From assembly GCA_903907925.1 (NCBI GenBank), contig CAIVQB010000070.1, positions 61,448 to 125,447 of the forward strand: DNA of 64,000 nt, given 5' to 3'. The translations under genes and the position numbers were made by a program. Of this stretch, positions 8,001 through 60,387 are shown one piece after another. The DNA is from an uncultured Verrucomicrobiota bacterium. GTDB taxonomy: Bacteria > Verrucomicrobiota > Verrucomicrobiia > Limisphaerales > UBA9464. Within the stretch, counting starts at the first letter, position 1. Every line of letters begins with the position of its first letter. Under the pieces are notes generated by a model. The model saw only the letters and a list, made by a program, of their open reading frames with translations. It was not told where the DNA came from and did not search any database.

Positions 8001-8041
8001 CGACGTGTGACCCAAGTCCTGAGCAGTTCCGTATCGTTCAT
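5018..8041 (-). CDS. ECF sigma-70 factor fused to a TM helix and carboxypeptidase-regulatory-like domain array
   Basis: 1007-aa ORF with ATG start. Region 2 is FAELVRRYVDLVYASARRQV and region 4 is VTEDAARMRVQRALEKLR. The TM helix is TVVAFVLVPLAVLLFLP. Repeated modules include LQGVVQDESGLPVSDAVI, VTGRVLGPDDQPIPNATV, VRGQVVDVEGHPLAGAVV and TDANGRFRFDAVPP. Confidence 0.85.
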   Translation of the reverse strand: MNDTELLRTWVTRRDETAFAELVRRYVDLVYASARRQVGASPLVDDIVQAVFLVLARKADSLSPKVILSGWLFQTTRFVAARALLAERRRSHHESASAMQPPTAESTEVPEHWTEVAPHLDAALASLPGSDRDALVLRFLEGKPLRLVGDRLGVTEDAARMRVQRALEKLRGLLTSKGAVLTAAGLLSLLGNLPVMAAPADLAGQIVSDAGGRAASSIASTLANDAIRDESMARIRRLAARTVVAFVLVPLAVLLFLPRGESIAPLESAAVSTNAIATTSGSPIGPNLGNAAPAAKIVPSKILLQVRSSTNHRPLVAQVAVSLWGRGVTLDTSRIYSTDSSGSLEILATDPRIYELRAWVSAPGHVPVVLNWRQHEFVEPVLLYECLLEPGQTLQGVVQDESGLPVSDAVIRINGPGMWVAQRQDIGFAPKLTQVTTDASGRFRSDQIPALVGDYSRIRYTVTHPDFVRARAMLDGPASLATNHVVTLQHGWKVTGRVLGPDDQPIPNATVEENNHLGDPQREAKTDPEGRFEIGPFALGKVLLEAATEGFTGREQEVEVGPTGNEVSLRLTRKDASKSEFERGVAAAQHVRLFGSAVDANSGEPLPRFQVWLDDHRGGMLGLVGDGTSGRFDWPVEMMFHDSFSLEVRAEGYESTLSDVRPAKDGAQNFEFRLRKGNIVRGQVVDVEGHPLAGAVVSLQGLGFGFTLRDKKATHSGGEIPQMVTRSDGHFSFPLKLNSEQVLVVHDSGVGILPVGRATNVPIVIQPWGSIEGVALTAGRPAANQRILLHTLLPEKESDPLGIPIDSSTETDANGRFRFDAVPPVSVILRRMYNPSGSRLGRVGVGPGYRMDVQPGILSEVKLETTGRAVVGRLHLSQPVPGYHWTDDLQTLEMERNDPPNPSLELNRLNETERVRSARLSVFRDQRTRRYFPRIESDGSFRIEDVPSGNYVFKLALRYPAEDFGNPYLQNPAQASGSLDLPIRVPDGSFSDSPVDLGVITIPIQTR

Positions 8042-23162: not shown

Positions 23163-24848
23163 TTGTTGCGTCAGGAGCCCTTCTCTCTCAACGTCAACCA
23201 TTTATCATTTTTGAACACTTCGAATGCAGGCGGGAAAATAAATCTCGGATCCGTTTTAAGATATCTATTCTTCACAAATAACGCCCAAGGCTCCGTTTGG
23301 TCAAAGTCGCTGGCCCTCGCCGGAGTGTTCCTTTCACTCCTGTTTGTTTTGTATGTCACCAAGCCCCCACGCGTTTTTCGTCATCCGGGTGATGCATTCA
23401 TTCTCATTTCAGCGGTCGAACGAATCTCGCATGGAGAGGTTCCTCATCGGGATTTCTACTCCCCCTTGGGCTCGCTTAATTTTTATATTGCCGCCCTTGG
23501 AAAACCTTTCGGGCATGACGTTTATGACATATTCTTCGTCGGCATCTACGCCGTCAGCTTCGCTCTAGTGCTGGTTGGAAGCGCGGTGTTTCTCCGCCGA
23601 CTCCCGGTTGGTCTTGCCATTCTCTCATCGATATTCATTGGCGTTCTTGCAATCAATTACAGGGTGCTTGGCTCGATGCATTTTGAGAATGCGGTGGCCA
23701 TGCAATACAATCGGATCGGCGAAGCCTTTCTTTTCCTGGCGGCGGTCATTCTTTTCATTCCGCCGCGCGAAAAAATGAGTGGGGTGGTATCGATTCTCGA
23801 GGCGACAGCGTCCGGGATTTTGATCGGGTTGCTATTTTTCGTAAAAATCAACTTCTTCATTCTCGGGGTGGGTTTTCTAGGGGCCTCTTTTATATTCCCA
23901 CGCACGAGCCTGCTTCAGCGAAGCCTGACGTGTGCGGGCGTTGTGGTGACGATCGTTTTGTACCTGCACTTCGTCCAATTCACTCTTTCCGAGTATTTGG
24001 GTGATCTTGGGCTTGCGAGTGCCAGTCAAAGCTTCCTTAAACGATTCTCCGGATTGGTCAAAGTCTCAGGCTTGGTCCCCGAAATTGTGACCGTATGCAT
24101 TTTGGGAATTATAACCTCAAAAGAGCTTCGATTTCCACCCGGATTGAATTTTCGTGCGAAGCAGTTTGGGGTTGTTCTCGTCGTGGTTCTTGCGGGTGTG
24201 TTTGCCCAGGCTACCAACGCCGGTGGGCTTGAAGAGCCTTGTTTCGTTCTTGCGGGATTGATCGCGTTTTTCCCGTTGATTGAAAGTCAGCGGGTCGAAG
24301 GGGGAAATGGTTCCTGCCCTTCATTTCTTGTCGCGTCCCTGCTCCTGATCAGTCTCTTCTCAAGAACGTTGATGATCGACGGCGTGTCGATGGTTCATAA
24401 GATTATGTATAATCATCAGCATCAACGCGAAAACGATCCGGCCTTCATTCTCTTGACCGGGAATCCCTATCCCAGCTTGAGATTTGGAGACGAATGTCGA
24501 AGCTATATCAGCGATCTGAACAGCGGGATTGAATTGATCTTGTCGCAGGTGAAAGATCCGGGTGCCGAGCGGATATCAACTCCGGAATTTGCAAACCCAT
24601 TTCCGCCATTGGTTGGGGCTCGATATGCCAAGGGGGATGCCTTGTGGTGGCACGAATCTGTGAATTACTCCGAACGTAGTTTTCCATCTCCAAACCGGAC
24701 CTGGAACAACACCACGTTGCTGATCGAGTCGAAGGGAGGCACTGCTGATCCGCTGGGACTCCCGGAATACGCCGACTACAAAAAACGGCATTTTCGACTC
24801 CTTGCTGACAATGCGACGTGGAGGCTGTACCGGCGGATTAGCCCATGA
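23163..24848 (+). CDS. polytopic membrane protein, GT-C-fold glycosyltransferase candidate
   Basis: 561-aa ORF with a TTG start, so the exact start is uncertain. It has at least 10 hydrophobic segments. The first loop (HPGDAFILISAVERISHGEVPHRDFYSPLGSLNFYI) resembles the acidic first loop of polyprenyl-phosphate-sugar-dependent GT-C enzymes (DUF2029/GT87-like). Local composition is AT-rich. Confidence 0.6.
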   Translation: MLRQEPFSLNVNHLSFLNTSNAGGKINLGSVLRYLFFTNNAQGSVWSKSLALAGVFLSLLFVLYVTKPPRVFRHPGDAFILISAVERISHGEVPHRDFYSPLGSLNFYIAALGKPFGHDVYDIFFVGIYAVSFALVLVGSAVFLRRLPVGLAILSSIFIGVLAINYRVLGSMHFENAVAMQYNRIGEAFLFLAAVILFIPPREKMSGVVSILEATASGILIGLLFFVKINFFILGVGFLGASFIFPRTSLLQRSLTCAGVVVTIVLYLHFVQFTLSEYLGDLGLASASQSFLKRFSGLVKVSGLVPEIVTVCILGIITSKELRFPPGLNFRAKQFGVVLVVVLAGVFAQATNAGGLEEPCFVLAGLIAFFPLIESQRVEGGNGSCPSFLVASLLLISLFSRTLMIDGVSMVHKIMYNHQHQRENDPAFILLTGNPYPSLRFGDECRSYISDLNSGIELILSQVKDPGAERISTPEFANPFPPLVGARYAKGDALWWHESVNYSERSFPSPNRTWNNTTLLIESKGGTADPLGLPEYADYKKRHFRLLADNATWRLYRRISP

Positions 24849-33474: not shown

Positions 33475-34047
33475 TCAGCCGCGGAACTTAGCGGCCAGAC
33501 GGGCCACCCGCTGACCGAGGAGTTCACCGGTCAGTTTGTCGGCGGCGTTGGGGGCGACGTCGGTGGGTTCCTGTCCGGCCTGACCCATCACGCCGCTGTA
33601 GCTGGAAAGGCGGTTGATGCCCTTGTCGTTGTACGGATTCTCGGGGAATCCCACCCAGATCATGCCGTGCTGCATCGCGAGGGTGATAAAGTACTGGAGC
33701 GTGCTCAGTTTGTCGCCGCTCGGACCGCCCGAAACGGTGAAACCCGCCGCGAGCTTGTCGCGCCAGCCACCGCGGAACCAGCGTTCGGCGGTGGCATCGG
33801 CGAAGGCCTTGAACTGCGCCGCGGGCCCGCCCATGTAAGTCGGGCTGCCGAAAATGATCGCATCGCTGGCGTCGAGTTGAGCGAGAACCGCGTCGTTCTT
33901 GTAGCGGCCCTTGATGATGTCATCGCCGCTGAGGCTGATGAGGTGGGCTTGAACGCCCTCGATGGAGGCGGCGCCCTGGTGGACGGCTTCGGCGAGCTTG
34001 GTGGTGTGGCCGGAGCCGGAGAAGTGAATGATGGAAACGGTGGTCAT
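33475..34047 (-). CDS. flavodoxin-fold NAD(P)H:quinone oxidoreductase (WrbA-like)
   Basis: Motifs present are IIHFSGSGHTTKLAEAV and FGSPTYMGGPAAQFKAF. The protein is 190 aa. Confidence 0.8.
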   Translation of the reverse strand: MTTVSIIHFSGSGHTTKLAEAVHQGAASIEGVQAHLISLSGDDIIKGRYKNDAVLAQLDASDAIIFGSPTYMGGPAAQFKAFADATAERWFRGGWRDKLAAGFTVSGGPSGDKLSTLQYFITLAMQHGMIWVGFPENPYNDKGINRLSSYSGVMGQAGQEPTDVAPNAADKLTGELLGQRVARLAAKFRG

Positions 34048-34073
34048 GGTGACAGGGGTGAGGTTGAGGGTTG

Positions 34074-34772
34074 TCAGTTGAGATCGAACAAAAGCACCTG
34101 GGCCTGCCGAGTCCCGGTCAATTCCAGGACGCCGGTTTCGTCGATCGCCGCGGCATCGCCCGGTCCGAGACGTTCACCGTTCAGCATCACTTCGCCTTCG
34201 GCCACGTGGGCCCACGCGTGGCGGCCGGGTGCGAGCGCGTGCGTCACGCGATCGCCGGCGTTGAGTTTGGCCAGCCAGAGATCGGCATCCTGATGAATGG
34301 CGATGGATCCGTCGCGGCCGGTCTTGCTGGTGACCAGGTGCAGCCTGCCGCTCGCGGCCGAGGCAAAGGATTGCTCGGCGTACCGTGGTTTCACCCCGCG
34401 TTGATCGGGCTGAATCCAGATCTGGAGCAGGTGCACCGCCTCGTCCGGGGCGGGATTGAACTCGCTGTGCTGGACCCCGGTTCCGGCGGCCATGTATTGC
34501 ACGTCACCGGCGCGAATCACCCGGCCGTTGCCCATGGAATCCTTGTGCTCCAGGGAACCGCTGAGAACATAGGTGATGATTTCCATGTCCCGGTGCGGAT
34601 GAGTGCCGAACCCCCCACCCGGCATCACGATGTCGTCGTTGATCACCCGGAGACTGCGAAATCCCATCCAGCGGGGATCGTAATAATCCGCGAAGCTGAA
34701 GGAGTGGTAGCTCTCCAGCCATCCGTGGTTGGCGTGTCCCCGGTCTCCGCTGCGTCGAATCGTCGTTTTCAT
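34074..34772 (-). CDS. pirin-family protein
   Basis: ATG at 34772. Motifs are RGHANHGWLESYHSFSFADYYDP, GFGTHPHRDMEIITYVLSG and GDVQYMAAGTGVQHSEFN. Confidence 0.9.
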   Translation of the reverse strand: MKTTIRRSGDRGHANHGWLESYHSFSFADYYDPRWMGFRSLRVINDDIVMPGGGFGTHPHRDMEIITYVLSGSLEHKDSMGNGRVIRAGDVQYMAAGTGVQHSEFNPAPDEAVHLLQIWIQPDQRGVKPRYAEQSFASAASGRLHLVTSKTGRDGSIAIHQDADLWLAKLNAGDRVTHALAPGRHAWAHVAEGEVMLNGERLGPGDAAAIDETGVLELTGTRQAQVLLFDLN

Positions 34773-34827
34773 GGGCTCAAGGTGGCACGCCGACGGCCGC
34801 TCCGGGAAAGACCGAGTTGCTTGCCTT

Positions 34828-34848
34828 AGCATAACTCAAAGGTATGCT
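34828..34848. promoter_or_regulatory. candidate LysR-type operator (perfect inverted repeat AGCATA-N9-TATGCT)
   Basis: It lies in the 85-nt divergent intergenic region between the pirin gene and the LysR gene. The dyad contains a T-N11-A core (ATAACTCAAAGGTAT). Confidence 0.45.
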
Positions 34849-34857
34849 CGGTGGCGC

Positions 34858-35754
34858 ATGGAACTCCGTCATTTGCGCTATTTCATCGCCGTGGGTGAGG
34901 CGGAAAATGTTTCGCGGGCGGCGGCGAAGCTGCATGTGTCGCAACCGGCGGTGAGCCGTCAGGTGCGGGATCTGGAGGCGGAACTGGGCTTTCCCCTGCT
35001 GGAACGAACAGCCCGATCGGTCCGCCTCACGGAATCCGGCCGGATCTTTCTGACCGAGGCGCGCGCGGTGTTGCAACGGGTCGAGGAGGCGGTGATGAAG
35101 GCGCGTGCCGTGGCGTCCGGCGGCCGGGGCGAACTTCATGTCGGTTACGCGATGTCGCCCACGGTGCGGATTTTGCCGCCGGCGTTGCGGGCGTTCCAAA
35201 AGGGTGCACCGGGAATTCGCGTCAAGTTGCACGATCTCGCCACCACCGAAATGCTGGCCGGATTGCGGGACGGCGGCCTCCAACTCGCGATCCTGGTCTG
35301 TCCCGCGCCGGCGCGGTTGAAGGGGCTGAAGTACGAGGAATTGGCCAAGGGCGCAATGATCCTGGCGGTGGCGCCGAAACATCGATTCGCCCGGAAGCGG
35401 TCGGTGACGCTGGCGGAGGTGGCACGCGAGCCGTTGATCGCGTTCAACCGGGAGGAATACCCGGACTACCATGAATCGCTGGCCGTTTTGTTTGCCGGCG
35501 TCCGGACCAAGCCGCGGATTGCCGAGGAACACGACAGCGTCGGCAGCCTGATCGCCGCGGTGGAGGCGGGAGGCGGCGTGGCGGTGGTGACCGAGTCGCT
35601 GGCCTGTGTGGCGGGTCCTCGTTTGAAATTGGTTGCGCTCTCGCCGAAGCCGGCGCCGTTCAGCATCGGTGCCGCGTGGTTGAAGGGTGGCCTTACCCCG
35701 GCGGCGAAACTGTTCCTCGACTGCGCGCGAGTGGCCGCGGCGGCTTCAGGTTGA
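34858..35754 (+). CDS. LysR-family transcriptional regulator
   Basis: ATG at 34858. The HTH is MELRHLRYFIAVGEAENVSRAAAKLHVSQPAVSRQVRDLEAELGFPLLER. The gene is divergent from the pirin-flavodoxin pair. Confidence 0.92.
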   Translation: MELRHLRYFIAVGEAENVSRAAAKLHVSQPAVSRQVRDLEAELGFPLLERTARSVRLTESGRIFLTEARAVLQRVEEAVMKARAVASGGRGELHVGYAMSPTVRILPPALRAFQKGAPGIRVKLHDLATTEMLAGLRDGGLQLAILVCPAPARLKGLKYEELAKGAMILAVAPKHRFARKRSVTLAEVAREPLIAFNREEYPDYHESLAVLFAGVRTKPRIAEEHDSVGSLIAAVEAGGGVAVVTESLACVAGPRLKLVALSPKPAPFSIGAAWLKGGLTPAAKLFLDCARVAAAASG

Positions 35755-35817
35755 GCATCCGTTTTGTTGATTTGCTGAAAGAACTCCGGTCCTGCGGCTT
35801 ATTTCATAGCAGAGCGC

Positions 35818-36471
35818 ATGCGAAGTCATCCTGACGAAGACAGTTTTCTTCCCACACGACAGAGCCTGCTGTCGCGGTTGAAGGATCATGAAGATCAGGC
35901 GGGCTGGCGGGAGTTTTTCGAGACCTACTGGCGGTTGATCTACGGCGTCGCCCGCAAGGCCGGCCTGTCCGACAGCGAAAGTCAGGATCTCGTCCAGGAA
36001 ACCATGGTGGTGCTGGCGCGGCACTTGCCGGATTTCCGTTACGATCCGGCCCGGGGCTCCTTCAAGGCGTGGCTCCACACCGTCATCCGGTCCCGGCTGT
36101 CCGAACATTTCCGCAGGGTGCGACGGACGTCCCATCACGAGGCGATTCCCGAGGATTCCGGCACCGCGACGTCGGGAGCCGCGGTGGAGAAGCTTCCCGA
36201 TGCGTCGACCGGAACGCTGGAGGAGATCTGGCGCACCGAGTGGGAAACCCATGTGCTCGACACCGCGTTGCGACGGGTCCGGGCGAAGGTTAGTGCCCGT
36301 CAGTATCTCATCTTCAGCCTCGCCACCCTGAAGGAAACGCCACTGTCGGTGATCCGCAGCAAGCTCGACGTCAATGTCGCCCAGATCTATCTCGCCAAGC
36401 ATCGGGTGGGAAAACTGGTGAAGGAGGAGATCGCCCGCTTGCGTCACGAGGCGGAGAACTCCGCCGACTGA
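35818..36471 (+). CDS. ECF sigma-70 factor of the Ser/Thr-kinase-associated type
   Basis: 217 aa with TRQSLLSRLKDHEDQAGWREFFETYWRLIYGVARKAGLSDSESQDLVQET and FKAWLHTVIRSRL, plus a C-terminal HTH. No anti-sigma gene is adjacent. The next gene is a kinase. Confidence 0.85.
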   Translation: MRSHPDEDSFLPTRQSLLSRLKDHEDQAGWREFFETYWRLIYGVARKAGLSDSESQDLVQETMVVLARHLPDFRYDPARGSFKAWLHTVIRSRLSEHFRRVRRTSHHEAIPEDSGTATSGAAVEKLPDASTGTLEEIWRTEWETHVLDTALRRVRAKVSARQYLIFSLATLKETPLSVIRSKLDVNVAQIYLAKHRVGKLVKEEIARLRHEAENSAD

Positions 36472-36527
36472 CGGGTTGCATTCGGGTCCCGGCCCGGTTT
36501 TGCATCGGCAGGTCGCAGCCTCTTCCC

Positions 36528-39500
36528 TTGAAACCCGCATTGCTCATTCCGGATCACGAACTGCTCCGGGTCATCGGCCGCGGCAGCTACGGGGAGGTCT
36601 GGCTGGCTCGCAATGTCATGGGAACCCTGCGGGCGGTTAAGCTGGTGTTCCGGGAACATTTTGAAAGCGACCGGCCGTTTGAACGCGAGTTCGCCGGGAT
36701 TCAGCGTTACGAGCCCCTCAGCCGTTCCGCGGATGGTTTGGTTCAGATTCTTCACGTCGGTCGGAATCCCGGAGCGGGTGCATTCTACTACGTCATGGAA
36801 CTGGCCGACGATGCACTCGCCTGGCCTCCTGCTTCCGTGCCGGGCGCATCGGCGCGGGACTTCGATGCGGCGGCCTACGTTCCACGGACCCTCCACCGCG
36901 ACCTGGAGCAACTGGGATGTTTGCCGGTGGCGGACTGTGTCGAACTTGGCCTCGCTCTCGCCGCCGGCCTGGCTCATCTGCATCGCCACGGCCTCGTCCA
37001 TCGGGATCTCAAGCCCGCCAACATCATCTACGTCAATGGCCGCGCAAAAATGGCCGACGTGGGTTTGGTCGGAGATATCTCGGCTTCGCGGACATTCGTG
37101 GGTACGGAGGGCTACATTCCCCCGGAAGGTCCCGGAACGCCGGGTGCGGATGTGTTCGGCCTCGGCCGGGTTCTGTATGAGGCCAGCACGGGATTCGATC
37201 GGGAACGGTTCCCCGATTTGCCCGATGAATGGCTGGAATCCGAGGGCTCCAACGATGAACTGGAGTTCCACGAAGTCAGCTTGAAGGCCGGGGAAGGGGA
37301 CGCCGCCCGTCGCTATCAGACCGCCGCTGAACTTCAGGCCGACTTGGCGCTGCTTCAAAGCGGGCAGTCCCTGCGCCGGGTCCGGCAGATGGAGCGCAGG
37401 TTGGGGCGCGCGCGGCGGATCGCGATGGCGTCGGCGATCGTCGGCGCGGTGGCCGCGGTGGCCCTGCTGTTGGCGGGATACCGGTCCCGGATCGAACGGC
37501 AAAACCTGCAACAATCGGAACGGTTGCGCATTCGCGCGGAGTCGGCGGAACGCGAGGCCCGCCAGCAGTTGTTCGAATCGCAGCTCGCCCGTGCGGCGGC
37601 CGAACGTGACAATCGGACGGCCGGTGCCCGGGATCTGGCCCTGGCGGAAATCTGTGCTGCGGCCCGCGTTCATCCGGATTCGGTTGAACTCCGCGGTGTG
37701 GCCGCGACCCTCCTCGCTCTTCCGGAACTGACCGCGTTGCGCCGAATCCCAGTCCTCGGAGGGCCCAAGCCTCACGCCGTGGTGGATCCGGTCCATTCGA
37801 GGTACGCCAGCGTGGATGCCGCGGGTCGTTTGGCTTTGCGAAATATTGAGGACGATACGGTGCTCCCGGCGCTGGAACAGCCGGCGGAAGGAGGAGTGGG
37901 TTGGGTGTGGAATTTCAGTGGCGACGGCCGCTGGTTGGGAGGAGTGGATCAGAAGCGGCATCTGCTGGTCTGGAATCTGGGAACCGGCCGATTGGTTTCC
38001 TCGGCGCGATTTCTCACCAACGCCCCGATGTTCGACTTCGTCCCGGCAACGGATGAAGTCGCGATCGCCGCCGGGGAGGGGCGTCTTGAATTCGTGAACC
38101 TGCACACCGGGAACGTCGTCAGGGAGCTTCAGTTGGGGAAAGCGACCACTTGGTTTTCCGTCGGTCCGGATGGACGACGCGTTGCCATCAACGGGCCACA
38201 GGGGATTCAGGTATTAAATGGAACGAATGGCACTGTTGAGGGTTCGTGGCCGTTTCAGGGGCTGGTACAGCGGCCTGGAATGGCCTGGACTCCGGACGGC
38301 CGAACTCTCGCGGTGGGCGGGCCCGGCTTTGACGTCGTCGTTCTGAGCGTGGAGCCCTTTCGCGGGGAACCCGTGTGGCTTCGTGGACATTCCGCGGAGG
38401 TGTCGAGTCTGACGTTCGGTCCGGACGGACGTTGGTTGGCCACGGCTTCCTGGGATTCTACGACGCGACTGTGGGACCCGGTTTCGGGACGCCTGCTCCT
38501 GACCCAGCCGGAGGCGGGCGAGTTGACGTGGACGGCCGGATCCCGATTGGTGCGGTGGAGGAACACCGACAACGACCAGCAATCGCTTACGGTTCTCAAG
38601 ATCGATCTTCCCCGTGCCTGCCGGGCCATTGCTGAAATTCCGCCCGCGGCCAATCCGGAAAACCACAAGGGTCCCTGGGTTGTGGAATGCTTCGCCGACG
38701 GGCGTCTGATCGCGAGTCCATCCTATGAAGGCGTACGGATCAGCGATGCGGTCACCGGTGCCGATCTGGCCACCTTGCCGACCGATCATGCCACCAGTTG
38801 CACGGTTGCCGCCGATCCACCGTCGCTGCTGCTAACCGCGGGTGGTCGCATGATTCGATGGCCATTCCAGTGGGATCCGACGGCGGCGCGGCTCCGATTT
38901 GGCCGGCCGCTTGTTGTCGAAGGATCCGATGGTGCCTTCGTGGCGACGGCGGACTCAGGGGGACGCCGTCTTTGGGCCAGCATCGGGTCGGGCATCCGGG
39001 TTTGGGAACACGGCACGAACCGCCTGGTGTGTGACCAGCCAGGGCGTTATCCGAAACCGGTGGTCAGTTCAGACGGCGAATGGCTGGTGGTGACCGTGCA
39101 CGAATTCACAAATCTGCTGCTCCGACGGACCCGGGATGGTTCGGTGGTGCGCGAGCTGGCCGACTCGAACCTGGGGCAGGTTGACTTCAGCCCTGACGGC
39201 CGGCGGATTGCTGTTTCCTCGGGGGATAAGATCCGCGTGGAAGCCGTCGCGGACGGGCGCATTCTGTGGAGTGTCGCCCGTCCCGAAGTCGGCGGCCGGG
39301 GCGGTCCGGTCCGGTTTTCGCCGAATGGTTCGATGTTGGCAGCCGAGTATGGCCGCGATGACGTCGCCATTCTCGATGCCTCCAGCGGCCGGATCATCGT
39401 CCGACTCGCGCACCCACAGCCTGAACTGATCTCCAGCTTTGCCTTCACGCCGGACGGAACCCGATTGGCCATCGCCTGTTCGACGCACGTGGTGCATCTC

Positions 39501-39623
39501 TGGGACTTGCGAGAATTGAGTCGGGAGGAAGCCGAACTTGGAATCGATTCCGGTTTGCGCGGAATGGGTGGAGAATCGACAGGGAGGTCGGAATCGGTGC
39601 AGGTCAGTTTTGATTCGGATTGA
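36528..39623 (+). CDS. Ser/Thr protein kinase - TM helix - WD40 beta-propeller protein
   Basis: TTG start. Kinase motifs are GRGSYGEVW, AVKLV, HRDLKPANII, ADVGLV (a DFG variant) and GTEGYIPPE. The TM helix is IAMASAIVGAVAAVALLLAGY. Many WD-like blades follow (for example GHSAEVSSLTFGPDGRWLATASWDSTTRLWD). Confidence 0.88.
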   Translation: MKPALLIPDHELLRVIGRGSYGEVWLARNVMGTLRAVKLVFREHFESDRPFEREFAGIQRYEPLSRSADGLVQILHVGRNPGAGAFYYVMELADDALAWPPASVPGASARDFDAAAYVPRTLHRDLEQLGCLPVADCVELGLALAAGLAHLHRHGLVHRDLKPANIIYVNGRAKMADVGLVGDISASRTFVGTEGYIPPEGPGTPGADVFGLGRVLYEASTGFDRERFPDLPDEWLESEGSNDELEFHEVSLKAGEGDAARRYQTAAELQADLALLQSGQSLRRVRQMERRLGRARRIAMASAIVGAVAAVALLLAGYRSRIERQNLQQSERLRIRAESAEREARQQLFESQLARAAAERDNRTAGARDLALAEICAAARVHPDSVELRGVAATLLALPELTALRRIPVLGGPKPHAVVDPVHSRYASVDAAGRLALRNIEDDTVLPALEQPAEGGVGWVWNFSGDGRWLGGVDQKRHLLVWNLGTGRLVSSARFLTNAPMFDFVPATDEVAIAAGEGRLEFVNLHTGNVVRELQLGKATTWFSVGPDGRRVAINGPQGIQVLNGTNGTVEGSWPFQGLVQRPGMAWTPDGRTLAVGGPGFDVVVLSVEPFRGEPVWLRGHSAEVSSLTFGPDGRWLATASWDSTTRLWDPVSGRLLLTQPEAGELTWTAGSRLVRWRNTDNDQQSLTVLKIDLPRACRAIAEIPPAANPENHKGPWVVECFADGRLIASPSYEGVRISDAVTGADLATLPTDHATSCTVAADPPSLLLTAGGRMIRWPFQWDPTAARLRFGRPLVVEGSDGAFVATADSGGRRLWASIGSGIRVWEHGTNRLVCDQPGRYPKPVVSSDGEWLVVTVHEFTNLLLRRTRDGSVVRELADSNLGQVDFSPDGRRIAVSSGDKIRVEAVADGRILWSVARPEVGGRGGPVRFSPNGSMLAAEYGRDDVAILDASSGRIIVRLAHPQPELISSFAFTPDGTRLAIACSTHVVHLWDLRELSREEAELGIDSGLRGMGGESTGRSESVQVSFDSD

Positions 39624-39737
39624 AGGAAGTCTAAGCCTAAACAATGCGGTCAGATCCGCCTTTGGATGGAGGTTTGAAGCGGCGGTGTTCGCAGTTGGGC
39701 TCCACCTCTCCCGCCCTACGGCCGGGGAGGGAAGTCG

Positions 39738-39827
39738 ATGGGGTGGGGGCTTGCACCAGCGTTGCTCATCCTCGGCACTCCGGCGGCTTTGCTTTCCGTC
39801 TGGCGGTGGATGCGCCTCCCGGGATAG
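39738..39827 (+). CDS. candidate trpE upstream leader ORF (29 codons, three Trp)
   Basis: Translation is MGWGLAPALLILGTPAALLSVWRWMRLPG*. GGAGG at 39726-39730 lies 7 nt before the ATG. The TAG at 39825-39827 is 18 nt before the trpE ATG, which has no SD of its own. Confidence 0.3.
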   Translation: MGWGLAPALLILGTPAALLSVWRWMRLPG

Positions 39828-39845
39828 CTTCTCCGCCCCTTGGTT

Positions 39846-41390
39846 ATGGACGCACCGACGCTGCCTGAGTTTCTCCAGCTCGCGGAGCGGGGCAATCTGA
39901 TCCCCGTCACCCGCAGGCTTCTTGCTGATTTCGAGACTCCGCTGTCGGCCTATTGGAAACTCCGTGGTCAGGGCGAATCCTTCCTCTTTGAATCGGTCGA
40001 AGGGGGCGAACATCTCGGCCGCTACTCGTTCGTCGGCTGCAATCCGCGCGCGGTCATCAAGCAGACCGGCGATCGCGTCGAGGTGATCGAAGGCGGCCGG
40101 GTCCGCGAGACGTTCCAGGTGGTTCCGCGCTCCAAGGCCGCCGCTGGCGCGCCACAGGATCCTTCCATCGTCGCCGATGGCCTCGAAGTCGTCCAACGCC
40201 TCCTGGCCCGTTTCAAGCCGGTTCCCATGCCGGGTCTCCCGCGATTCACCGGCGGTGCGGTCGGATTCCTCGGGTACGAATTCATCCACGATGTCGAACC
40301 GGTCGTTCCGCGGCCGAAGCACGATGAACTCGGCACGCCGACGCTCTATTTCCTGATCACCGACGAACTCCTGATCTTCGATCGCGTCGCCCAGACGCTG
40401 ACCGTGCTGGTTAATGCGATCATCGAACCGGGCCAGAAACCGGAGGAAGCCTACGAAAACGCCGTCGGAGAAATCGAGCGCCTGACCGCGTTGCTGGAAC
40501 AACCGGTGGAGAATCATCCGGTGGGCCTTCCCGCCGAAGTGCCGCCGGTGCCGTTCGTTTCCAACACCACGCCCGAGGCATTTTACGCCAACGTCCGGAA
40601 GGCGAAGGAATTCATCGTCGCGGGCGACATCATCCAGGTGGTCGGTTCGCAGCGGTTCAGCACGCCGGTGAAGGCGCAGGCCTTCGACCTGTATCGCGCC
40701 GCCCGCAGTATCAATCCTTCGCCTTACATGTTCCTGCTGGAACTCGAGGGATTCGCGCTGGTCGGAGCCTCGCCGGAATTGCACGTGCGCTGTGTCGATC
40801 GACAGGTGGAGATCCGCCCGATCGCCGGCACTCGCGCGCGCGGGAAAACCGAGGCGGAGGACGAATCCAATGCCCGTGACCTGCTCGCCGATCCCAAGGA
40901 ACGCGCCGAACACGTGATGCTGGTCGACCTCGCCCGGAACGACATCGGCCGGGTCTGCGAATACGGCAGTGTCCACGTCCGGGAATTGATGGTCGTCGAA
41001 CGGTACAGTCACGTGATGCACATCGTCTCCCAAGTGGAAGGACGCCTATCCGCGGACCGGAACGCCTACGATTTGATGCGGATGACCTTCCCCGCGGGTA
41101 CCCTGAGCGGTGCGCCGAAGATTCGCGCGATGCAATTGATCTCCGAACTCGAAGGCACCACCCGTGGACCCTACGGCGGCTGCGTGGGATACTTCGGTTT
41201 CAACGGCAATTCCGATCATTGCATCACGATCAGGACCGCGCTGTTGAAGGATGGCCGGGCCTATGTGCAGGCGGGTGGCGGTTGGGTGAACGATTCAACC
41301 CCCGAAGCCGAGTTCCAGGAAACGGTGAACAAGTCCAAGGCCATGCTGAAGGCAGTGGCCTTGGCCGAACAATTCGCGGCGAATCGGTGA
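39846..41390 (+). CDS. trpE: anthranilate synthase component I
   Basis: ATG at 39846. Motifs are LIPVTRRLLADFETPLSAY, FLFESVEGGEHLGRYSF, GTRARG...LLADPKERAEHVMLVDLARNDIGRV and PAGTLSGAPKIRAMQLI. Confidence 0.95.
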   Translation: MDAPTLPEFLQLAERGNLIPVTRRLLADFETPLSAYWKLRGQGESFLFESVEGGEHLGRYSFVGCNPRAVIKQTGDRVEVIEGGRVRETFQVVPRSKAAAGAPQDPSIVADGLEVVQRLLARFKPVPMPGLPRFTGGAVGFLGYEFIHDVEPVVPRPKHDELGTPTLYFLITDELLIFDRVAQTLTVLVNAIIEPGQKPEEAYENAVGEIERLTALLEQPVENHPVGLPAEVPPVPFVSNTTPEAFYANVRKAKEFIVAGDIIQVVGSQRFSTPVKAQAFDLYRAARSINPSPYMFLLELEGFALVGASPELHVRCVDRQVEIRPIAGTRARGKTEAEDESNARDLLADPKERAEHVMLVDLARNDIGRVCEYGSVHVRELMVVERYSHVMHIVSQVEGRLSADRNAYDLMRMTFPAGTLSGAPKIRAMQLISELEGTTRGPYGGCVGYFGFNGNSDHCITIRTALLKDGRAYVQAGGGWVNDSTPEAEFQETVNKSKAMLKAVALAEQFAANR

Positions 41391-56380: not shown

Positions 56381-59300
56381 TCAATGGTTGAACATGAATT
56401 CGGGCGAATTGCTCAGCGCCCAAAAAACATCCTCTGTGGCTGCCTTGCGGGTCGCTCCCGGGGAAAGGAAGGCCTCGACCGCGGTGGCGAGTTCCGCGGC
56501 GGTGGGAGGGCGGCTGAGCGTGGCCAGGTACAATTCCTCCACCACGTCGTCGGCCGCGGCGGAGCTCCTGGCCAGGCGTTGCAGGCGTCCGGACGGGTTG
56601 ATGAATTTCGCCTGCAGGGTGCGCGAATTCATCAGGTGCAGCGTCTGCGCCACGCTGAGCTGGGTGTCGCGTTCGCACGGACAATCGCTGCTGGAGTTCG
56701 GACGCCCGAAGGCATCGAGAAAATGGGACTGGATCCGGTAGCTCCACGCCTGCGTCGCGCGTCCGCCGATGGGCATCGCCGCGAAGACATCCGGTACCCC
56801 GGTGGCATCGCTCACCGCATCGTCCATCACCTCGGCGGGCAATCGCCGGCGGTACGAGCGCGAAAAATTGCGGGTGTCGGCGAGGTTGGTGTCGTTGGGT
56901 GTCGAACTCAGTTGATATGTCTGCGATTCGAGAATCGTGCGAATCAGATGTTTGAGGTCATACCCGTGGGACGAGAAATCCGCCGCCAGCCCGTCCAGCA
57001 GGGCCGGGTTGACGCAGGGATTCGAGCTGCGAAAATCGTCGACCGGCTGCACCAGACCGCGCCCGAAGAAACTGGCCCAGACCCTGTTCACCGCGGCCCG
57101 CGCGAAGAACGGATTGCCCGGCGCGGTGAGCCAGTCCGCCAGTTGACGTCGTGGATCGCCGGGTTCCGGGCCACGTTCCGCACCATCGGGCGGGCGCGGG
57201 GTCATCACGGCCCCGGTGATCGGGTGTTTCACCGTCCCACCAGGCGCGAAAAAGAAGGTCTCGGTGCCCGCTGAAATCGGAGGGGAAAGTCCGGCGCCTT
57301 TTTGCTTCAAGGGCCCGAAGTAGGCCGCCAGTCGGTAGAAGTCCTCCTGACTCCATTTTTCGTTCGGATGATGATGGCACTTGGCGCATTCCAGTCGCGT
57401 ACCCAGAAACAACTGACTAAACATCGTGGTCAATTCCGCAGGTTCCCGCCGGTCGCGATAGATGACCGCCGGGCCGACCCGCTGATTGGAGCCCTCGGCG
57501 AGCAGGATTTCGCGGACGAATTGATCGTACGGCTGATTGGCGCGGAATCGTTCCCGCAGCCATTGGTCCAACAGGAAGACGCTTTTCACACCCACCCGGT
57601 CGGGATTCGGGCGTAACAGATCGGCCCACTTGTTCGCCCAGAAATCGGCATAGGCGGGATTCTCCAACAGCCTGTCGATGAGCCGGCGCCGTTTGTCGGG
57701 CGAGGGGTCTTTTTGGAAGGCGCGAATTTCGTCCGGCGTGGGGAGAAGGCCAACGGTGTCCAGCGTGGCGCGCCGCAGAAATTCGAGATCGGTGCAGGGA
57801 TCCGACGGCAGGAATCCCAGGCGCTGGAATTGCGCGTACGCCTGGGTGTCGATGAAATTGTTGGTCCGCAGGCCGGCGTAGCGTTCCACCGGAAGCACCT
57901 TGTCGGCGGGCACCATGATTTGCGCGTCCCCGACAAATCCCATGTAGCGGGCCACCACGACGCCCTGACCGGTCAACTGCCCGATGGTGATCCGGCCCTG
58001 TTCATCGACGCGGGCCATTTCCTTGTCATTGGAATCATACAACGCGAGCCGGGTCACATCGCGCATGCTGCCGTCCGAATACCGGGCCAGCACCAACAGT
58101 CGCTGCGTGGCACCCTTGCGATACCGCCGTTCCTTGGGGAATGCAGTCACCCGCTCGACCACCGGCTCGTTGGTGAGGGAATAAGACATGCCGGAGTGGA
58201 TCCAGCGGGATAACAACTGATGAGTTTCCGATCCCGGAGCGAAGCGTTGGCCGCCTTCGTGGGAAGTCCGTGTGAGGGGTTTCAGCAACAGCAAACTTTC
58301 GTCCGGTGCCGCCGGGAAAATCCGGCGCCCGTGCGCCTCGTTCACGATCTCCGCATAGTCAGCCTTGGGATCGTAGGAGAAGACTGAAAGCTTGAATCCA
58401 TTTTGTCCGTCGGGTTTTGCGTGGCAGCTCCCCGCGGAACAGCCGGCCTGATTCAACGCCGGCAGAATGTCCCTCACGAAACTGGGGACAGGTGGCGTCA
58501 ATGCTGCATCGCCACGAACGTTCACCGGAATCCGGATTTCCTTTGCCCCCACTCGCGCGGTCACCACGCCCGAACCCGCACCCAACGCCCGGATGTCGCC
58601 GCCTTCATCCATGCGAAGCGGGGCTCCCCAGCTGACGGCGAAGCGCGCCGCATCGGTCACGTCCACATCAAATCCGTCCGTCGTCCGCGCGGTCACCACC
58701 ACCTGATGATGGGGTGAATCGGCCGAAAGGTTCACTTGGGCGGGCTCCGCGGAGAGTGAAACAATTTCGGCTGCCAGGAGTGGAGGTGTTCGGGGACGCC
58801 CGTTTTTGTCGGAGGCTTTGATGGCTCCGAACAAGGGAACTGCAGCGACGCGCCGGGAGGTGCCGCCGGCCCTGGGTTGCGATCCGGCCACGGGTGACGG
58901 AGCTGGCACCGCGAGTTCCGCGAGAAGTTTTCCGTCACCGTCCCAGACACGGATCGTGCCGTCCTGACACCCGCCGGCAATCCGTTTGCCGTCGGTGGAA
59001 ACCGCGAGGCATTGAACGGCGCTGGTAAGATCGGCCATGCGGAGCTCATCGCCGGAAGCTGAACTTTGCTCACCGGTATGCGACTTGAGATGCGTGTATC
59101 GAAAGACCCCGCCGCCATCCGAGGCCGTGAAGAGTGCGCTGCCGTCGCCAGGCCACGCCACCGCGGTCAACGCAGCCGAATGGGTGCCAAGAGAAATGAT
59201 TTTCTCCCGGGTGGCGATGTCCCACACCTTCAATTGCCGGTCGGCACCGGCGCTGGCCACCTGGGTGGCCTTGTCATTGAACGCCGCAGCCAATACCTGC

Positions 59301-60268
59301 GCGGTGTGGCCTTCCAAAATGGCCAGTTCCTTCCGCGTGGCGACCTCCCACACCTTGACCAGTTGATCCCCGCCGGCCGTCACGAGCCGGGGTCCGTCGC
59401 GGCTGAATTCCAGATCGAACACGGTATCGGAATGGGCGCGCCACGATTGCAGTTTGCTGTTGGAGGTCAGGTCGAGCAGTCGGACATAGCCGGGTTTTCC
59501 GCTCCCGCCATCCGCCAGTGCCAGGGTGCGATCGTCTGGCGTGAGTTCCACGGCGGTCACCCGGCCGGAAAGGCCTTCCGAGACCTCGCGCCCGGCCAGC
59601 AATGTGTCTCCGCTCCAAAATCGAATCCGACGAAAGCCACCGCTCACCAACGTGTGACCGTCGTGACTCCAGGTTAGCGATTGGATCGCGTCGGTGTGGG
59701 CTTGAACCTCGATCACGAGGGGGAAGTTGGTCCGGGTCAGATCATACAACGCGAGTTGTCCGCCACGCCCCGCGGCCAGGCGCTGGCCATTCGGAGACAG
59801 AGCGAGTGCCAGGCTGGGATGATAGGTGTCGGGAAGCGGGGAGAGATCGATTGCTTGGACGGGATCCTCCTCGGTGAGCGTCGCGGCGTCCCAGGCCAGG
59901 CCGTTCTTGATCCACTCGCGAATCGTCCGAATCTGGGAGGGATCCAATTGTTTCCGGGGCGGCATGTGGGAGTCCGCGCCCGCCTGGAGGAATCCGGCGA
60001 GTTTGCTGTCTTGGGGATGTCCCGGTCGGACCACCGGTCCATCGTCGCCGCCCCGAAGAATCGATTCCCGCGACAGGAGCGACAGTCCTCCCTTTTGCTT
60101 TTGCTCACCATGACAGGTGAAGCACTCGTTTTTCAGGATCGTCAGGGCGGCACGCGCGCGGGAGTCGCCGCCACCGCCACCGGTTCCACCCGGGACGGCC
60201 GCCGCGCACAGCGATCCCACGATCGATGCGATCGCCAGCAACCACCGTTGTAACGAAAGACGCGGCAT
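56381..60268 (-). CDS. PSCyt1 - WD40 propeller - Ig-like - DUF1549 - DUF1553 giant protein
   Basis: ATG at 60268 (the track TTG is at 60277). The signal is LLAIASIVGSLCAAA. Motifs include NECFTCHGEQKQKGGLSL and WD blades (AHTDAIQSLTWSHDGHTLVSGG, AHSDTVFDLEFSRDG and others). Also present are GCSAGSCHAKPDGQNGFKLS, FLRRATLDTVGLLP, CAKCHHHPNEKW and the C-terminal FWALSNSPEFMFNH. Confidence 0.88.
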   Translation of the reverse strand: MPRLSLQRWLLAIASIVGSLCAAAVPGGTGGGGGDSRARAALTILKNECFTCHGEQKQKGGLSLLSRESILRGGDDGPVVRPGHPQDSKLAGFLQAGADSHMPPRKQLDPSQIRTIREWIKNGLAWDAATLTEEDPVQAIDLSPLPDTYHPSLALALSPNGQRLAAGRGGQLALYDLTRTNFPLVIEVQAHTDAIQSLTWSHDGHTLVSGGFRRIRFWSGDTLLAGREVSEGLSGRVTAVELTPDDRTLALADGGSGKPGYVRLLDLTSNSKLQSWRAHSDTVFDLEFSRDGPRLVTAGGDQLVKVWEVATRKELAILEGHTAQVLAAAFNDKATQVASAGADRQLKVWDIATREKIISLGTHSAALTAVAWPGDGSALFTASDGGGVFRYTHLKSHTGEQSSASGDELRMADLTSAVQCLAVSTDGKRIAGGCQDGTIRVWDGDGKLLAELAVPAPSPVAGSQPRAGGTSRRVAAVPLFGAIKASDKNGRPRTPPLLAAEIVSLSAEPAQVNLSADSPHHQVVVTARTTDGFDVDVTDAARFAVSWGAPLRMDEGGDIRALGAGSGVVTARVGAKEIRIPVNVRGDAALTPPVPSFVRDILPALNQAGCSAGSCHAKPDGQNGFKLSVFSYDPKADYAEIVNEAHGRRIFPAAPDESLLLLKPLTRTSHEGGQRFAPGSETHQLLSRWIHSGMSYSLTNEPVVERVTAFPKERRYRKGATQRLLVLARYSDGSMRDVTRLALYDSNDKEMARVDEQGRITIGQLTGQGVVVARYMGFVGDAQIMVPADKVLPVERYAGLRTNNFIDTQAYAQFQRLGFLPSDPCTDLEFLRRATLDTVGLLPTPDEIRAFQKDPSPDKRRRLIDRLLENPAYADFWANKWADLLRPNPDRVGVKSVFLLDQWLRERFRANQPYDQFVREILLAEGSNQRVGPAVIYRDRREPAELTTMFSQLFLGTRLECAKCHHHPNEKWSQEDFYRLAAYFGPLKQKGAGLSPPISAGTETFFFAPGGTVKHPITGAVMTPRPPDGAERGPEPGDPRRQLADWLTAPGNPFFARAAVNRVWASFFGRGLVQPVDDFRSSNPCVNPALLDGLAADFSSHGYDLKHLIRTILESQTYQLSSTPNDTNLADTRNFSRSYRRRLPAEVMDDAVSDATGVPDVFAAMPIGGRATQAWSYRIQSHFLDAFGRPNSSSDCPCERDTQLSVAQTLHLMNSRTLQAKFINPSGRLQRLARSSAAADDVVEELYLATLSRPPTAAELATAVEAFLSPGATRKAATEDVFWALSNSPEFMFNH

Positions 60269-60387
60269 GGAAAACAAACCCGAGAATGCTCGCCTCCCTG
60301 CCGGAATGGCAACGACCCAAACGCATCAATCTTACCGTCCCGATGCCAACTGGAAGGGCGGGACACTGATTGCACGAATCGGAACGG

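Follow-up and report, generated by a model that had tools for sequence, protein, structure and literature searches.

An ECF sigma factor gene paired with a membrane Ser/Thr kinase gene in Verrucomicrobiota

How is an ECF sigma factor controlled when the gene that follows it codes for a membrane kinase and not for an anti-sigma factor? The question is raised by two genes in the window, the 64,000-nucleotide stretch of DNA from an uncultured Verrucomicrobiota bacterium analyzed here. The initial annotation described a 217-aa ECF sigma factor and, after a gap of 56 nt, a 1031-aa kinase protein, and all its statements about the sequence hold.

The gene pair and its conservation

35818 to 36471, forward strand: ECF (group 4) sigma factor gene, 217 aa
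36472 to 36527, forward strand: intergenic gap of 56 nt, with a weak hairpin plus T-run at 36482 to 36497
36528 to 39623, forward strand: membrane Ser/Thr kinase gene, 1031 aa, TTG start

Both ORFs are genuine genes that did not arise by chance, as homologs reach 94% identity for the sigma factor and 90% for the kinase sensor, and gene calls made independently for public contigs show two genes identical in layout, again separated by 56 nt. They are probably cotranscribed; terminator-like sites in the gap showed no enrichment compared with shuffles, and we claim no function for the hairpin. No anti-sigma gene adjoins the pair, as previously stated, with none within about 10 kb. Pfam searches of the neighbor genes from 24959 to 49095 returned no anti-sigma, PP2C (phosphatase), or FHA domain, and neither the kinase nor these genes matched an anti-sigma domain (ASD class I-III, FecR, RskA, zf-HC2). 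A novel, unrecognizable anti-sigma factor may be encoded elsewhere in the genome.

The initial annotation had made its proposal depend on synteny, and the pair is indeed syntenic in related genomes, with the kinase gene immediately after the sigma gene and in the same orientation in 60-61 of the 76 related Verrucomicrobiota loci; in 4 more, a related kinase lies no more than a few kb away. The 87% ortholog, L082, retains the pair intact though all flanking genes differ. The N-terminal 300 aa of the kinase are conserved at E values of 1e-80 to 1e-150, and the distances of the sigma factors and of the kinase domains correlate (mirror-tree, r = 0.82), a correlation that is also expected from simple coinheritance. 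About 12 of the 76 loci are paralogs with no adjacent kinase and no anti-sigma factor, which shows that a kinase encoded in cis is not required for the family to exist. These paralogs, together with an operon promoter of the autoregulatory type, would fit a kinase that is a mere cotranscribed output of the sigma factor, itself controlled transcriptionally or by something unlinked. We consider this quite improbable, as the kinase keeps position +1 in ~80% of the loci, which is the usual slot of the cognate regulator of an ECF sigma factor (PMC7826278), its catalytic residues are invariant, and sigma factor and kinase covary.

Kinase domain, membrane helix, and periplasmic region

36561 to 37382, forward strand: cytoplasmic Hanks-type kinase domain, residues ~12-285 (Pkinase; PknB alignment to residue 283)
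37410 to 37487, forward strand: single transmembrane helix, residues 295-320 (hydropathy of 2.53, 19-aa window)
37533 to 37715, forward strand: periplasmic three-helix stalk, residues ~336-396 (AlphaFold2 helices 2-26, 32-44, and 51-61 in model numbering)
37725 to 39506, forward strand: periplasmic tandem WD40 double beta-propeller, residues ~400-993 (Pfam, AlphaFold2, and Foldseek)

The kinase matches Pkinase (3.6e-20, residues 12-222), and the best PDB match of this domain is PknB (2e-13). The Hanks motifs described earlier, with DVG in place of DFG, are present (GRGSYGEVW at residue 17, HRDLKPANII at 158, A-DVG at 176-179, and GTEGYIPPE at 192), and the catalytic residues are conserved in the orthologs, with GxGxxG, K38, HRDxKPxN, D177, and PPE invariant in all 61 sequences. 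The replacement of DFG is family-wide, in the form D-[I/V/L]-G. On the basis of these residues, we can predict that the kinase is catalytically active.

The transmembrane helix and the WD40 region beyond the kinase domain were both confirmed, the former by hydropathy and the latter by Pfam, AlphaFold2, and Foldseek. An equivalent helix is found at residues ~280-340 in nearly all orthologs. Pfam WD40 and beta-propeller matches run across residues 462-1000 (WD40 at 7.6e-18 and many propeller models), and the AlphaFold2 model of the sensor (pLDDT of 87.9, pTM of 0.86) has about 56 strands, its best Foldseek matches being two-propeller WD40 proteins (2ymu at 9e-28, also 1nr0, 4nsx, and 5i2t). The model confidently predicts that the sensor folds as two propellers. 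The initial annotation had a periplasmic ligand sensed through this structure: the periplasmic location stands on topology, while the sensing is something that we infer, and the sensor is of the WD40 type in 40 of 55 orthologous kinases and of the FGE-sulfatase type in 10.

Across the family, conservation of the kinase domain far exceeds that of an ordinary Hanks domain, which could point to a role in holding the sigma factor at the membrane. The unstimulated domain would sequester it, and stimulation, by autophosphorylation or by phosphorylation of the sigma factor, would release it; this would explain a sigma factor that is off by default with intact RNAP contacts and no anti-sigma factor. 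However, the kinase has no anti-sigma-like domain and no spare cytoplasmic sequence, with its kinase domain at residues 12-285 and the helix starting at 295, and a literature search found no experimental precedent among Hanks kinases, all of which makes this arrangement distinctly unlikely.

The sigma factor, its region 2.2, and candidate phosphosites

35977 to 36000, forward strand: E54-S-Q-D57-L-V-Q60-E61 motif of sigma region 2.2, which corresponds to the canonical DAEDxxQE contact with RNAP beta-prime
36118 to 36222, forward strand: sigma2-sigma4 linker, residues ~101-135, Ser/Thr-rich in the window copy (alignment column statistics)
36265 to 36432, forward strand: sigma region 4, approximately residues 150-205, with a conserved AQ[IV]YLA[KR]HRV helix (TIGR02937 coverage and PDB ECF matches)

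The sigma factor matches Sigma70_r2 (PF04542; 1e-14, residues 34-104) and TIGR02937 sigma70-ECF (4e-19, residues 30-197, sigma4 included), and this superfamily model alone was above the cutoff in the NCBIfam search. It is small and has only sigma2 and sigma4, as in ECF (group 4) sigma factors, and the closest solved structures are the ECF sigma factors RpoE (2q1z) and Mycobacterium tuberculosis SigE, with an alignment that reaches residue 183. We found 3618 homologs in the protein database, about 303 clusters at 50% identity among the relatives with an E value of ≤1e-30, and at least 588 copies of the family in reference genomes, of which the best 80 all belong to Verrucomicrobiota.

With the register of region 2.2 fixed by alignment to the "DAEDLTQETF" of M. 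tuberculosis SigE, the acidic RNAP contacts are kept in the 74 family members ([D/E]54 in 90% and [D/E]57 in 100%), and Q60 (100%) and E61 (84%) are also conserved. At position 56, 48 of 61 sequences have Gln and 0% have Ser/Thr, and no conserved Ser/Thr was detected in region 2.2 across the family alignment. The initial annotation had looked toward ECF43, with a conserved Ser/Thr in region 2 and loss of the acidic residues as the features to check, and on both points the family turned out otherwise. In ECF43, an uncharged Q-T-T-A in sigma2.2 bears the phospho-Thr (PMC13147305, PMC8999054). Also to be corrected is its statement that phosphorylation-dependent activation is known only from a few other ECF groups, as it was demonstrated within ECF43, to which the experimental cases (EcfP/PknT, EcfK/PknS, and a Hyphomonas pair) all belong (PMC8999054, PMC13147305).

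A charge switch of the ECF43 type, in which a sigma2.2 devoid of acidic residues cannot bind RNAP until the kinase restores the charge at a conserved Thr/Ser, appears highly improbable here. The pair does share the ECF43 hallmarks of an adjacent Hanks-type kinase and a missing anti-sigma factor, and the window copy has Ser at 51, 53, and 55 around the motif. However, the alignment contradicts such a switch: E54 and D57 fill the DxxD positions that are uncharged (QTTA) in ECF43, position 3 of the motif, where ECF43 carries its phospho-acceptor Thr, is Gln, and the family consensus has Ala in place of the flanking Ser residues, while ECF43 is described as being without the acidic motif throughout and as having the Thr in 88% of its members (PMC8999054, PMC13147305). 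As the acidic residues are kept, the control point should lie elsewhere than in this switch.

Given the acidic residues kept in sigma2.2 and in the linker (E124, D128, and E135 in the latter), this sigma factor should, judging by its sequence, bind RNAP without phosphorylation. An RNAP-competent sigma factor needs an inhibitor, and the kinase could act indirectly, by phosphorylating an unlinked anti-sigma factor or adaptor that then frees or activates the sigma factor, much as PknB phosphorylates the anti-sigma factors RshA and RseA in mycobacteria (PMC8999054). We regard such indirect control as unlikely, since no conserved third partner gene turned up, either next to the two genes across 80 loci or in the ±10 kb around them in the window. 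The tight coevolution of sigma factor and kinase, with a kinase domain that is extremely conserved, agrees better with a direct partner.

For direct phosphorylation, T106 of EcfK suggests, by analogy, the linker as a candidate phospho-region (PMC13147305). The window copy has T104, S105, S114, T116, T118, S119, S130, T131, and T133 there, and among the Ser/Thr positions of the linker only one, the Thr of alignment column 120 (52%), is partly conserved. A further candidate is S159, at the beginning of sigma4. No Ser/Thr of the family alignment is both family-specific and strongly conserved at any RNAP-contact position; T13 and S16 look like a generic helix N-cap, and T62 and S81 are generic ECF residues.

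Putative promoter, proposed module, and comparison with known systems

35776 to 35784, forward strand: -35-like element TGAAAGAAC, 42 nt 5' of the sigma start codon (motif enrichment, aligned instances, and information content)
35796 to 35801, forward strand: -10-like element GGCTTA, found again in related loci at a constant distance past the -35-like element

A conserved putative promoter of the ECF type, TTGAAAGAAC followed after about 14 nt by GGCTTA or CGGATA (family consensus roughly sGs[A/T]TA), is found 40-60 nt upstream of the sigma genes. Exact TGAAAGA occurs at positions -80 to -25 in 40 of 79 sigma upstream regions, compared with 0.2 expected, and the geometry in L082 is the same as in the window. 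This motif is the putative promoter of the window sigma gene. In related loci, the pair of elements is also seen before neighboring genes, whose start codons follow the -10-like element by 6-12 nt and which encode alpha-2-macroglobulins as well as PATR, RHS, and Kelch proteins with signal peptides; no further target bearing the motif was found in the window.

The synteny, the invariant catalytic residues, the mirror-tree correlation, and the lack of an anti-sigma gene support the general idea of the initial annotation, that a coencoded membrane kinase governs the sigma factor instead of an anti-sigma factor. No analysis performed here triggered any of the three refutations it had named. With moderate confidence, we propose an autoregulated two-gene module in which an envelope cue acts through the membrane kinase on the ECF sigma factor. 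A single operon would code for the sigma factor and a single-pass Hanks-type Ser/Thr kinase that fills the anti-sigma role, its kinase domain facing the cytoplasm and its tandem WD40 double propeller, the presumed sensor, facing the periplasm. An envelope or periplasmic cue at the propeller would alter the kinase activity, and the kinase would then control the sigma factor, most likely through direct phosphorylation. The active sigma factor would transcribe its own operon from the TTGAAAGAAC-N14-GGCTTA promoter and, in related genomes, genes for secreted or envelope proteins with a like promoter and very short leaders. It is possible, though we advance it tentatively, that such pairs represent a second mechanistic class, in which an RNAP-competent sigma factor is gated through another interface (the linker or the beginning of sigma4, with an effect on beta-flap or promoter contacts) or by being held at the membrane by the kinase, and in which a promoter code of its own, TTGAAAGAAC-N14-sGsWTA, yields near-leaderless mRNAs for large secreted defense or adhesion proteins.

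As a single locus, the pair is ordinary, one member of a Verrucomicrobial family that is large, highly conserved, and of a kind described before. A third route of transmembrane signaling is recognized in kinase-linked ECF sigma factors, with a mechanism known for ECF43 only, and reviews note that the groups with a preserved acidic motif in sigma2.2 may function in another way and are uncharacterized (PMC8999054). The locus is valuable as an entry point to how kinase-linked sigma factors outside ECF43 switch, and it offers experimental handles in the kinase catalytic residues that never vary, a small set of candidate phosphosites, a candidate promoter that is well defined, and the candidate targets of related genomes (alpha-2-macroglobulins and PATR/RHS/Kelch proteins).

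With the ECF43 pairs EcfP-PknT of Vibrio parahaemolyticus and EcfK-PknS of Xanthomonas citri, in which the kinase activates the sigma factor by direct phosphorylation (PMC8999054, PMC13147305), the window pair shares the absence of an anti-sigma factor and a coencoded single-pass Hanks kinase with a variable extracytoplasmic domain. However, ECF43 is proteobacterial and the window family belongs to Verrucomicrobiota, and in EcfK an additional linker Thr substitutes for an acidic contact, whereas the window family keeps E124 and D128 and conserves no equivalent Thr. Also comparable are the Planctomycete groups ECF59-ECF62 and ECF217 (Jogler 2012; Casas-Pastor 2021), which are likewise PVC ECF sigma factors without an anti-sigma factor beside Ser/Thr kinases, although their named representatives come from Planctomycetes and the best 80 genomic relatives of the window sigma factor from Verrucomicrobiota. 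Kinase-linked groups other than ECF43, ECF59, and ECF60 reportedly retain a DAED-like motif, with a mechanism still to be established (PMC8999054, PMC8103513, PMC7826278). The window sigma factor shares with ECF61, ECF62, and ECF217 (representatives OJW24604.1, WP_008685225.1, and ELP31162.1) the kinase linkage, the lack of an anti-sigma factor, and the acidic sigma2.2, a comparison made with the properties described in PMC8999054 only. In contrast, ECF59 and the original ECF60 have an uncharged sigma2.2 in which a conserved phospho-acceptor Ser replaces the acidic motif, while the window sigma factor keeps the acidic residues and its S53 and S55 are Ala in the family consensus.

The kinase itself has an architecture identical to that of PVC-type membrane kinases (cytoplasmic Pkinase, one transmembrane helix, and a periplasmic WD40 array), which have been surveyed in Planctomycetota and outgroups together with kinases carrying periplasmic TPR or FGE-sulfatase domains (PMC11032199). 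That survey drew no connection between the kinases and sigma factors, whereas the window subfamily is defined by its sigma partner. Last, the operon logic is that of the canonical RpoE-RseA and SigE-RseA systems, with the sigma gene first, a transmembrane regulator at +1, an autoregulated promoter whose -35 element contains AAC, and an envelope-related output, but in the window the +1 gene codes for an active-looking kinase instead of an anti-sigma domain.

The sigma-kinase gene pair and its neighborhood

ORF, domain and motif checks confirmed the structure that the initial annotation had assigned to the two genes, including every kinase motif it quoted. The features of the region are as follows:

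34074..34832, -, pirin (longest ORF)
34729..35754, +, LysR regulator (longest ORF)
35818-36471, +, ECF sigma factor (sigma), 217 aa; matches Sigma70_r2 (1e-14) and the ECF superfamily model TIGR02937 (4e-19, residues 30-197)
36482..36497, +, weak GC hairpin followed by TTTTG, inside the sigma-kinase gap
36528-39623, +, Hanks-type Ser/Thr kinase-TM-WD40 protein (kinase), 1031 aa, TTG start; matches Pkinase (residues 12-222) and many WD40/propeller models (residues 462-1000)

Near-identical sigma and kinase proteins are present in public metagenome assemblies, where independent gene calls give the identical 56-nt gap between the genes. We discarded a terminator in this gap, as it holds only the weak hairpin and the region shows no excess of terminator-like sites; the hairpin may be nothing, or a mild attenuator.

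Upstream of the pair are the LysR regulator, divergent from the pirin and an FMN reductase, and a large DUF7133/GDSL/cupredoxin protein, while anthranilate synthase I (TrpE), a TPR protein, PurM, an acyltransferase and PSCyt/PSD1/DUF1501 genes lie downstream. A domain search found no anti-sigma domain in any of these neighbors, in line with the claim that no anti-sigma gene is adjacent, and no PP2C or FHA domain in the neighboring genes on either side. The longest-ORF starts of pirin and LysR overlap by about 100 nt, but both products are shorter (232 and 298 aa) in gene calls made independently on public contigs, so that this is a normal divergent LysR/target pair. The window holds no paralogous sigma/kinase pair, and the weak sigma matches elsewhere in it are two unrelated sigma-fusion proteins. 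Two paralogous proteins of ~1000-1100 aa on opposite strands (1091..4408, +, and 5018..8041, -) have an N-terminal ECF sigma (Sigma70_r2 + Sigma70_r4) fused to an ~800-aa extension with CarboxypepD_reg, Big_1-like and DUF6795 matches, and look like sigmas with giant regulatory C-terminal extensions, possibly transmembrane or extracytoplasmic.

Conservation of the pair and of the kinase

Judged by gene content and relatives, the source organism belongs to Verrucomicrobiota. The window locus is part of a conserved Verrucomicrobial family with hundreds of copies. Sigma has 3618 homologs in the protein database (E<=1e-5), including hundreds with 55-60% identity, and the family forms about 303 clusters at 50% identity (E<=1e-30). 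Relatives are encoded in at least 588 stretches of one-genome-per-species reference genomes, several of which have more than one copy; the best 80 of these stretches all come from Verrucomicrobiota MAGs. Some MAGs (those of loci L006, L014, L036, L037, L039, L044, L047, L054, L069, L073 and L079) carry evidently wrong organism labels, such as Bifidobacterium, Klebsiella, Akkermansia muciniphila or Acidobacteriota; with their typically Verrucomicrobial sigma, they are probably mislabelled bins. Two representatives of the family, P0253 (487 aa) and P0319 (490 aa), have roughly double the usual length, with the sigma region C-terminal (282-484) in one and N-terminal (4-211) in the other; they may be genuine long forms or fusions introduced by gene calling.

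Synteny was counted in the 76 loci with enough downstream sequence. A kinase gene lies immediately 3' of sigma on the same strand in 60-61 of them, so the pair is syntenic in related genomes. In four further loci a related kinase is encoded no more than a few kb away, and about 12 loci have no kinase near sigma and no anti-sigma either. In an 87%-identical orthologue (loci L082/L083) the pair is kept with every flanking gene different: its neighbors there are a 1347-aa Flg_new_2/Calx-beta protein and a 1059-aa protein without Pfam match, whereas the window pair (region 33475..41390) stands between LysR and TrpE. Sigma and kinase therefore travel as a unit, and have been relocated as such between close relatives.

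The catalytic residues of the kinase are conserved in its orthologues, the Gly-rich loop, beta3 Lys, HRDxKPxN, Mg-binding Asp and PPE motif being invariant in 61 sequences. The DVG reported in place of DFG is present, but it is not a defect, as the norm in these 61 sequences is D-[I/V/L]-G. The alignment with the closest solved kinase, M. tuberculosis PknB, extends to residue 283 and leaves no space for an extra cytoplasmic domain ahead of the one strong hydrophobic helix (residues 295-320). The N-terminal 300 aa (E 1e-80 to 1e-150) are conserved much more strongly than the sensor region, and the pairwise distances of sigma and kinase domain are correlated (r = 0.82).

The region after the TM helix is predicted to fold into three helices followed by about 56 strands (pLDDT 87.9, pTM 0.86), and the best structural matches of the model are two-propeller WD40 proteins (2ymu, Aip1 1nr0, Utp21 and Pwp2). 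WD40 sensors are present in 40 of 55 orthologous kinases, and an FGE-sulfatase-type domain in 10. Elsewhere in the window, a 1298-aa ORF (56381..60277, -) resembles a motif-preceded 1067-aa protein of related locus L029 (E 5e-22) and, more weakly, the WD40 region of the kinase; its product is probably another large WD40-repeat protein.

A candidate promoter and its possible targets

At 40-60 nt 5' of the sigma start codons we found a dyad consisting of a -35-like element, TTGAAAGAAC, a spacer of ~14 nt and a -10-like CGGATA or GGCTTA. Two sites were found in the window:

35776-35784, +, exact copy of the -35-like element, paired with GGCTTA at 35796-35801 (candidate operon promoter, form TGAAAGAAC-N-GGCTTA)
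24550..24580, +, second dyad-like site, TGAAAGATC...CGGATA, with a spacer about 3 nt too short

The exact TGAAAGA core occurs at -80..-25 in 40 of 79 sigma upstream regions (0.2 expected), and the one remaining exact match in these regions falls just outside this interval. The 87% orthologue (L082) has the same dyad geometry as the window. By analogy with ECF autoregulation, we infer that the dyad is the sigma family's own promoter. The kinase, which shares this operon, could, less probably, be a mere member of the regulon; the conserved position of its gene directly after sigma, its invariant catalytic residues and the co-variation of the two proteins speak against this. The site at 24550 was rejected as a promoter, since it lies within the 3' end of an ORF (23163..24848) with no + strand gene downstream, and is probably a chance match. 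Relaxed scans for further copies in the window did no better than shuffles, and within the window only the sigma-kinase operon carries the motif.

Across 1 Mb of related loci, the TGAAAGA heptamer is three-fold over-represented (174 vs 53 expected). These loci contain 35 additional full dyads, many of them directly behind the stop codon of the kinase or, in divergent orientation, upstream of sigma:

L082 10797..10840, second dyad copy (TGAAAGA...GCTTA/CGGAT) before a third gene
L003, L007, L010, L016, L020, L022, L024, L028, L030 and L073, second dyad just after the kinase stop
L047, L048, L057, L071, L074 and L077, second dyad divergent upstream of sigma

In each of these, a start codon follows 6-12 nt past the -10-like element, which suggests that the dyad-driven transcripts of these third genes are near-leaderless. 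Most of the genes encode proteins with signal peptides, among them ~1930-aa bacterial alpha-2-macroglobulins (4 loci), PATR-repeat, RHS-repeat and Kelch-repeat proteins, a PAP2/VCPO-like protein and families without Pfam match. The window has no homologues of these proteins, and its copy of the pair has no dyad-preceded third gene beside it. By the same analogy with ECF autoregulation, the output of the sigma family would be envelope or secreted proteins.

Control of sigma and comparison with known systems

The first ECF classification already included kinase-linked ECFs, and periplasmic WD40 arrays are a well-described feature of PVC kinases. Our search of the available literature found no earlier description of this sigma/kinase pairing in Verrucomicrobia. 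On the best-supported reading, the pair is an autoregulated ECF module gated by its kinase, which would fill the regulatory slot normally held by an anti-sigma. Direct phosphorylation of sigma would be the simplest mechanism in view of the ECF43 precedent, the conserved +1 position of the kinase gene, the invariant catalytic residues and the sigma-kinase co-variation. Less probably, the kinase domain could act as a tether or sequestering agent for sigma, or control could be indirect, through an unlinked partner.

Direct phospho-activation has been demonstrated in ECF43 itself (EcfP/PknT, a Hyphomonas pair and EcfK/PknS), so its members are the proven cases and not, as initially stated, a few other ECF groups (PMC8999054, PMC13147305). 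In ECF43 an uncharged Q-T-T-A replaces the acidic DxxD of sigma2.2 and its Thr is phosphorylated, with an additional linker Thr in EcfK as a substitute for an acidic RNAP contact (PMC8999054, PMC13147305); a Ser is said to serve similarly in ECF59 and ECF60 (PMC8103513). We set the sigma2.2 register by alignment to M. tuberculosis SigE (DAEDLTQETF = ESQDLVQETM) and calculated column statistics over 61 kinase-linked and 13 unlinked family members. Positions 54 and 57 are acidic in 90-100% and 100%, respectively, Q60 is invariant and E61 is kept in 84-100%, while position 56, that of the ECF43 phospho-Thr, is Gln and never Ser/Thr. The proposed conserved Ser/Thr in region 2 with loss of the acidic residues was thus not found, and the phosphosite cannot be that of ECF43. 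With the acidic contacts retained, sigma would be expected from its sequence to bind RNAP unphosphorylated, and something else would have to hold it inactive before the signal.

Other candidate sites were also considered. The Ser residues flanking the sigma2.2 motif in the window sigma are Ala in the family consensus. The linker keeps its acidic E124, D128 and D/E135; among its Ser/Thr positions only alignment column 120 shows partial conservation (Thr in 52%), and this column lies close to T116/T118/S119 of the window sigma. T13 and S16 are 100% conserved, but in unlinked sigmas too, and we read them as occupying the helix N-cap position of canonical ECFs; T62 and S81 are generic ECF residues in alignments to solved ECF sigmas. 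Only S159 sets linked and unlinked sigmas apart (Ser/Thr in 79% of the former and 38% of the latter, 3 of the 13 unlinked having Asp), in numbers too small for significance. This contrast yielded no significant kinase-specific phosphosite.

In the NCBIfam search only the superfamily model TIGR02937 exceeded its threshold, TIGR02984 and TIGR02989 scoring ~28 bits each against cut-offs of 124-184. None of these comparative by-products is a surprise, but the negative outcome for ECF43, the candidate promoter, its possible targets and the count of sensor types offer useful leads. Reviews already describe other kinase-linked groups (ECF61, 62, 217 and others) that keep a DAED-like motif and whose mechanism is open (PMC8999054, PMC7826278). 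Compared by published motif descriptions, the assignment to ECF43 holds for the kinase linkage without an anti-sigma and fails for the group's mechanism-defining feature, as ECF43 has the uncharged Q-T-T-A whereas the window sigma family retains acidic positions 54 and 57 and has no conserved Ser/Thr there. The sensors of the sigma-linked kinases (WD40 and FGE-sulfatase) agree with the set of domains reported for membrane kinases of the PVC group, where a periplasmic location is predicted for the WD40 arrays (PMC11032199).
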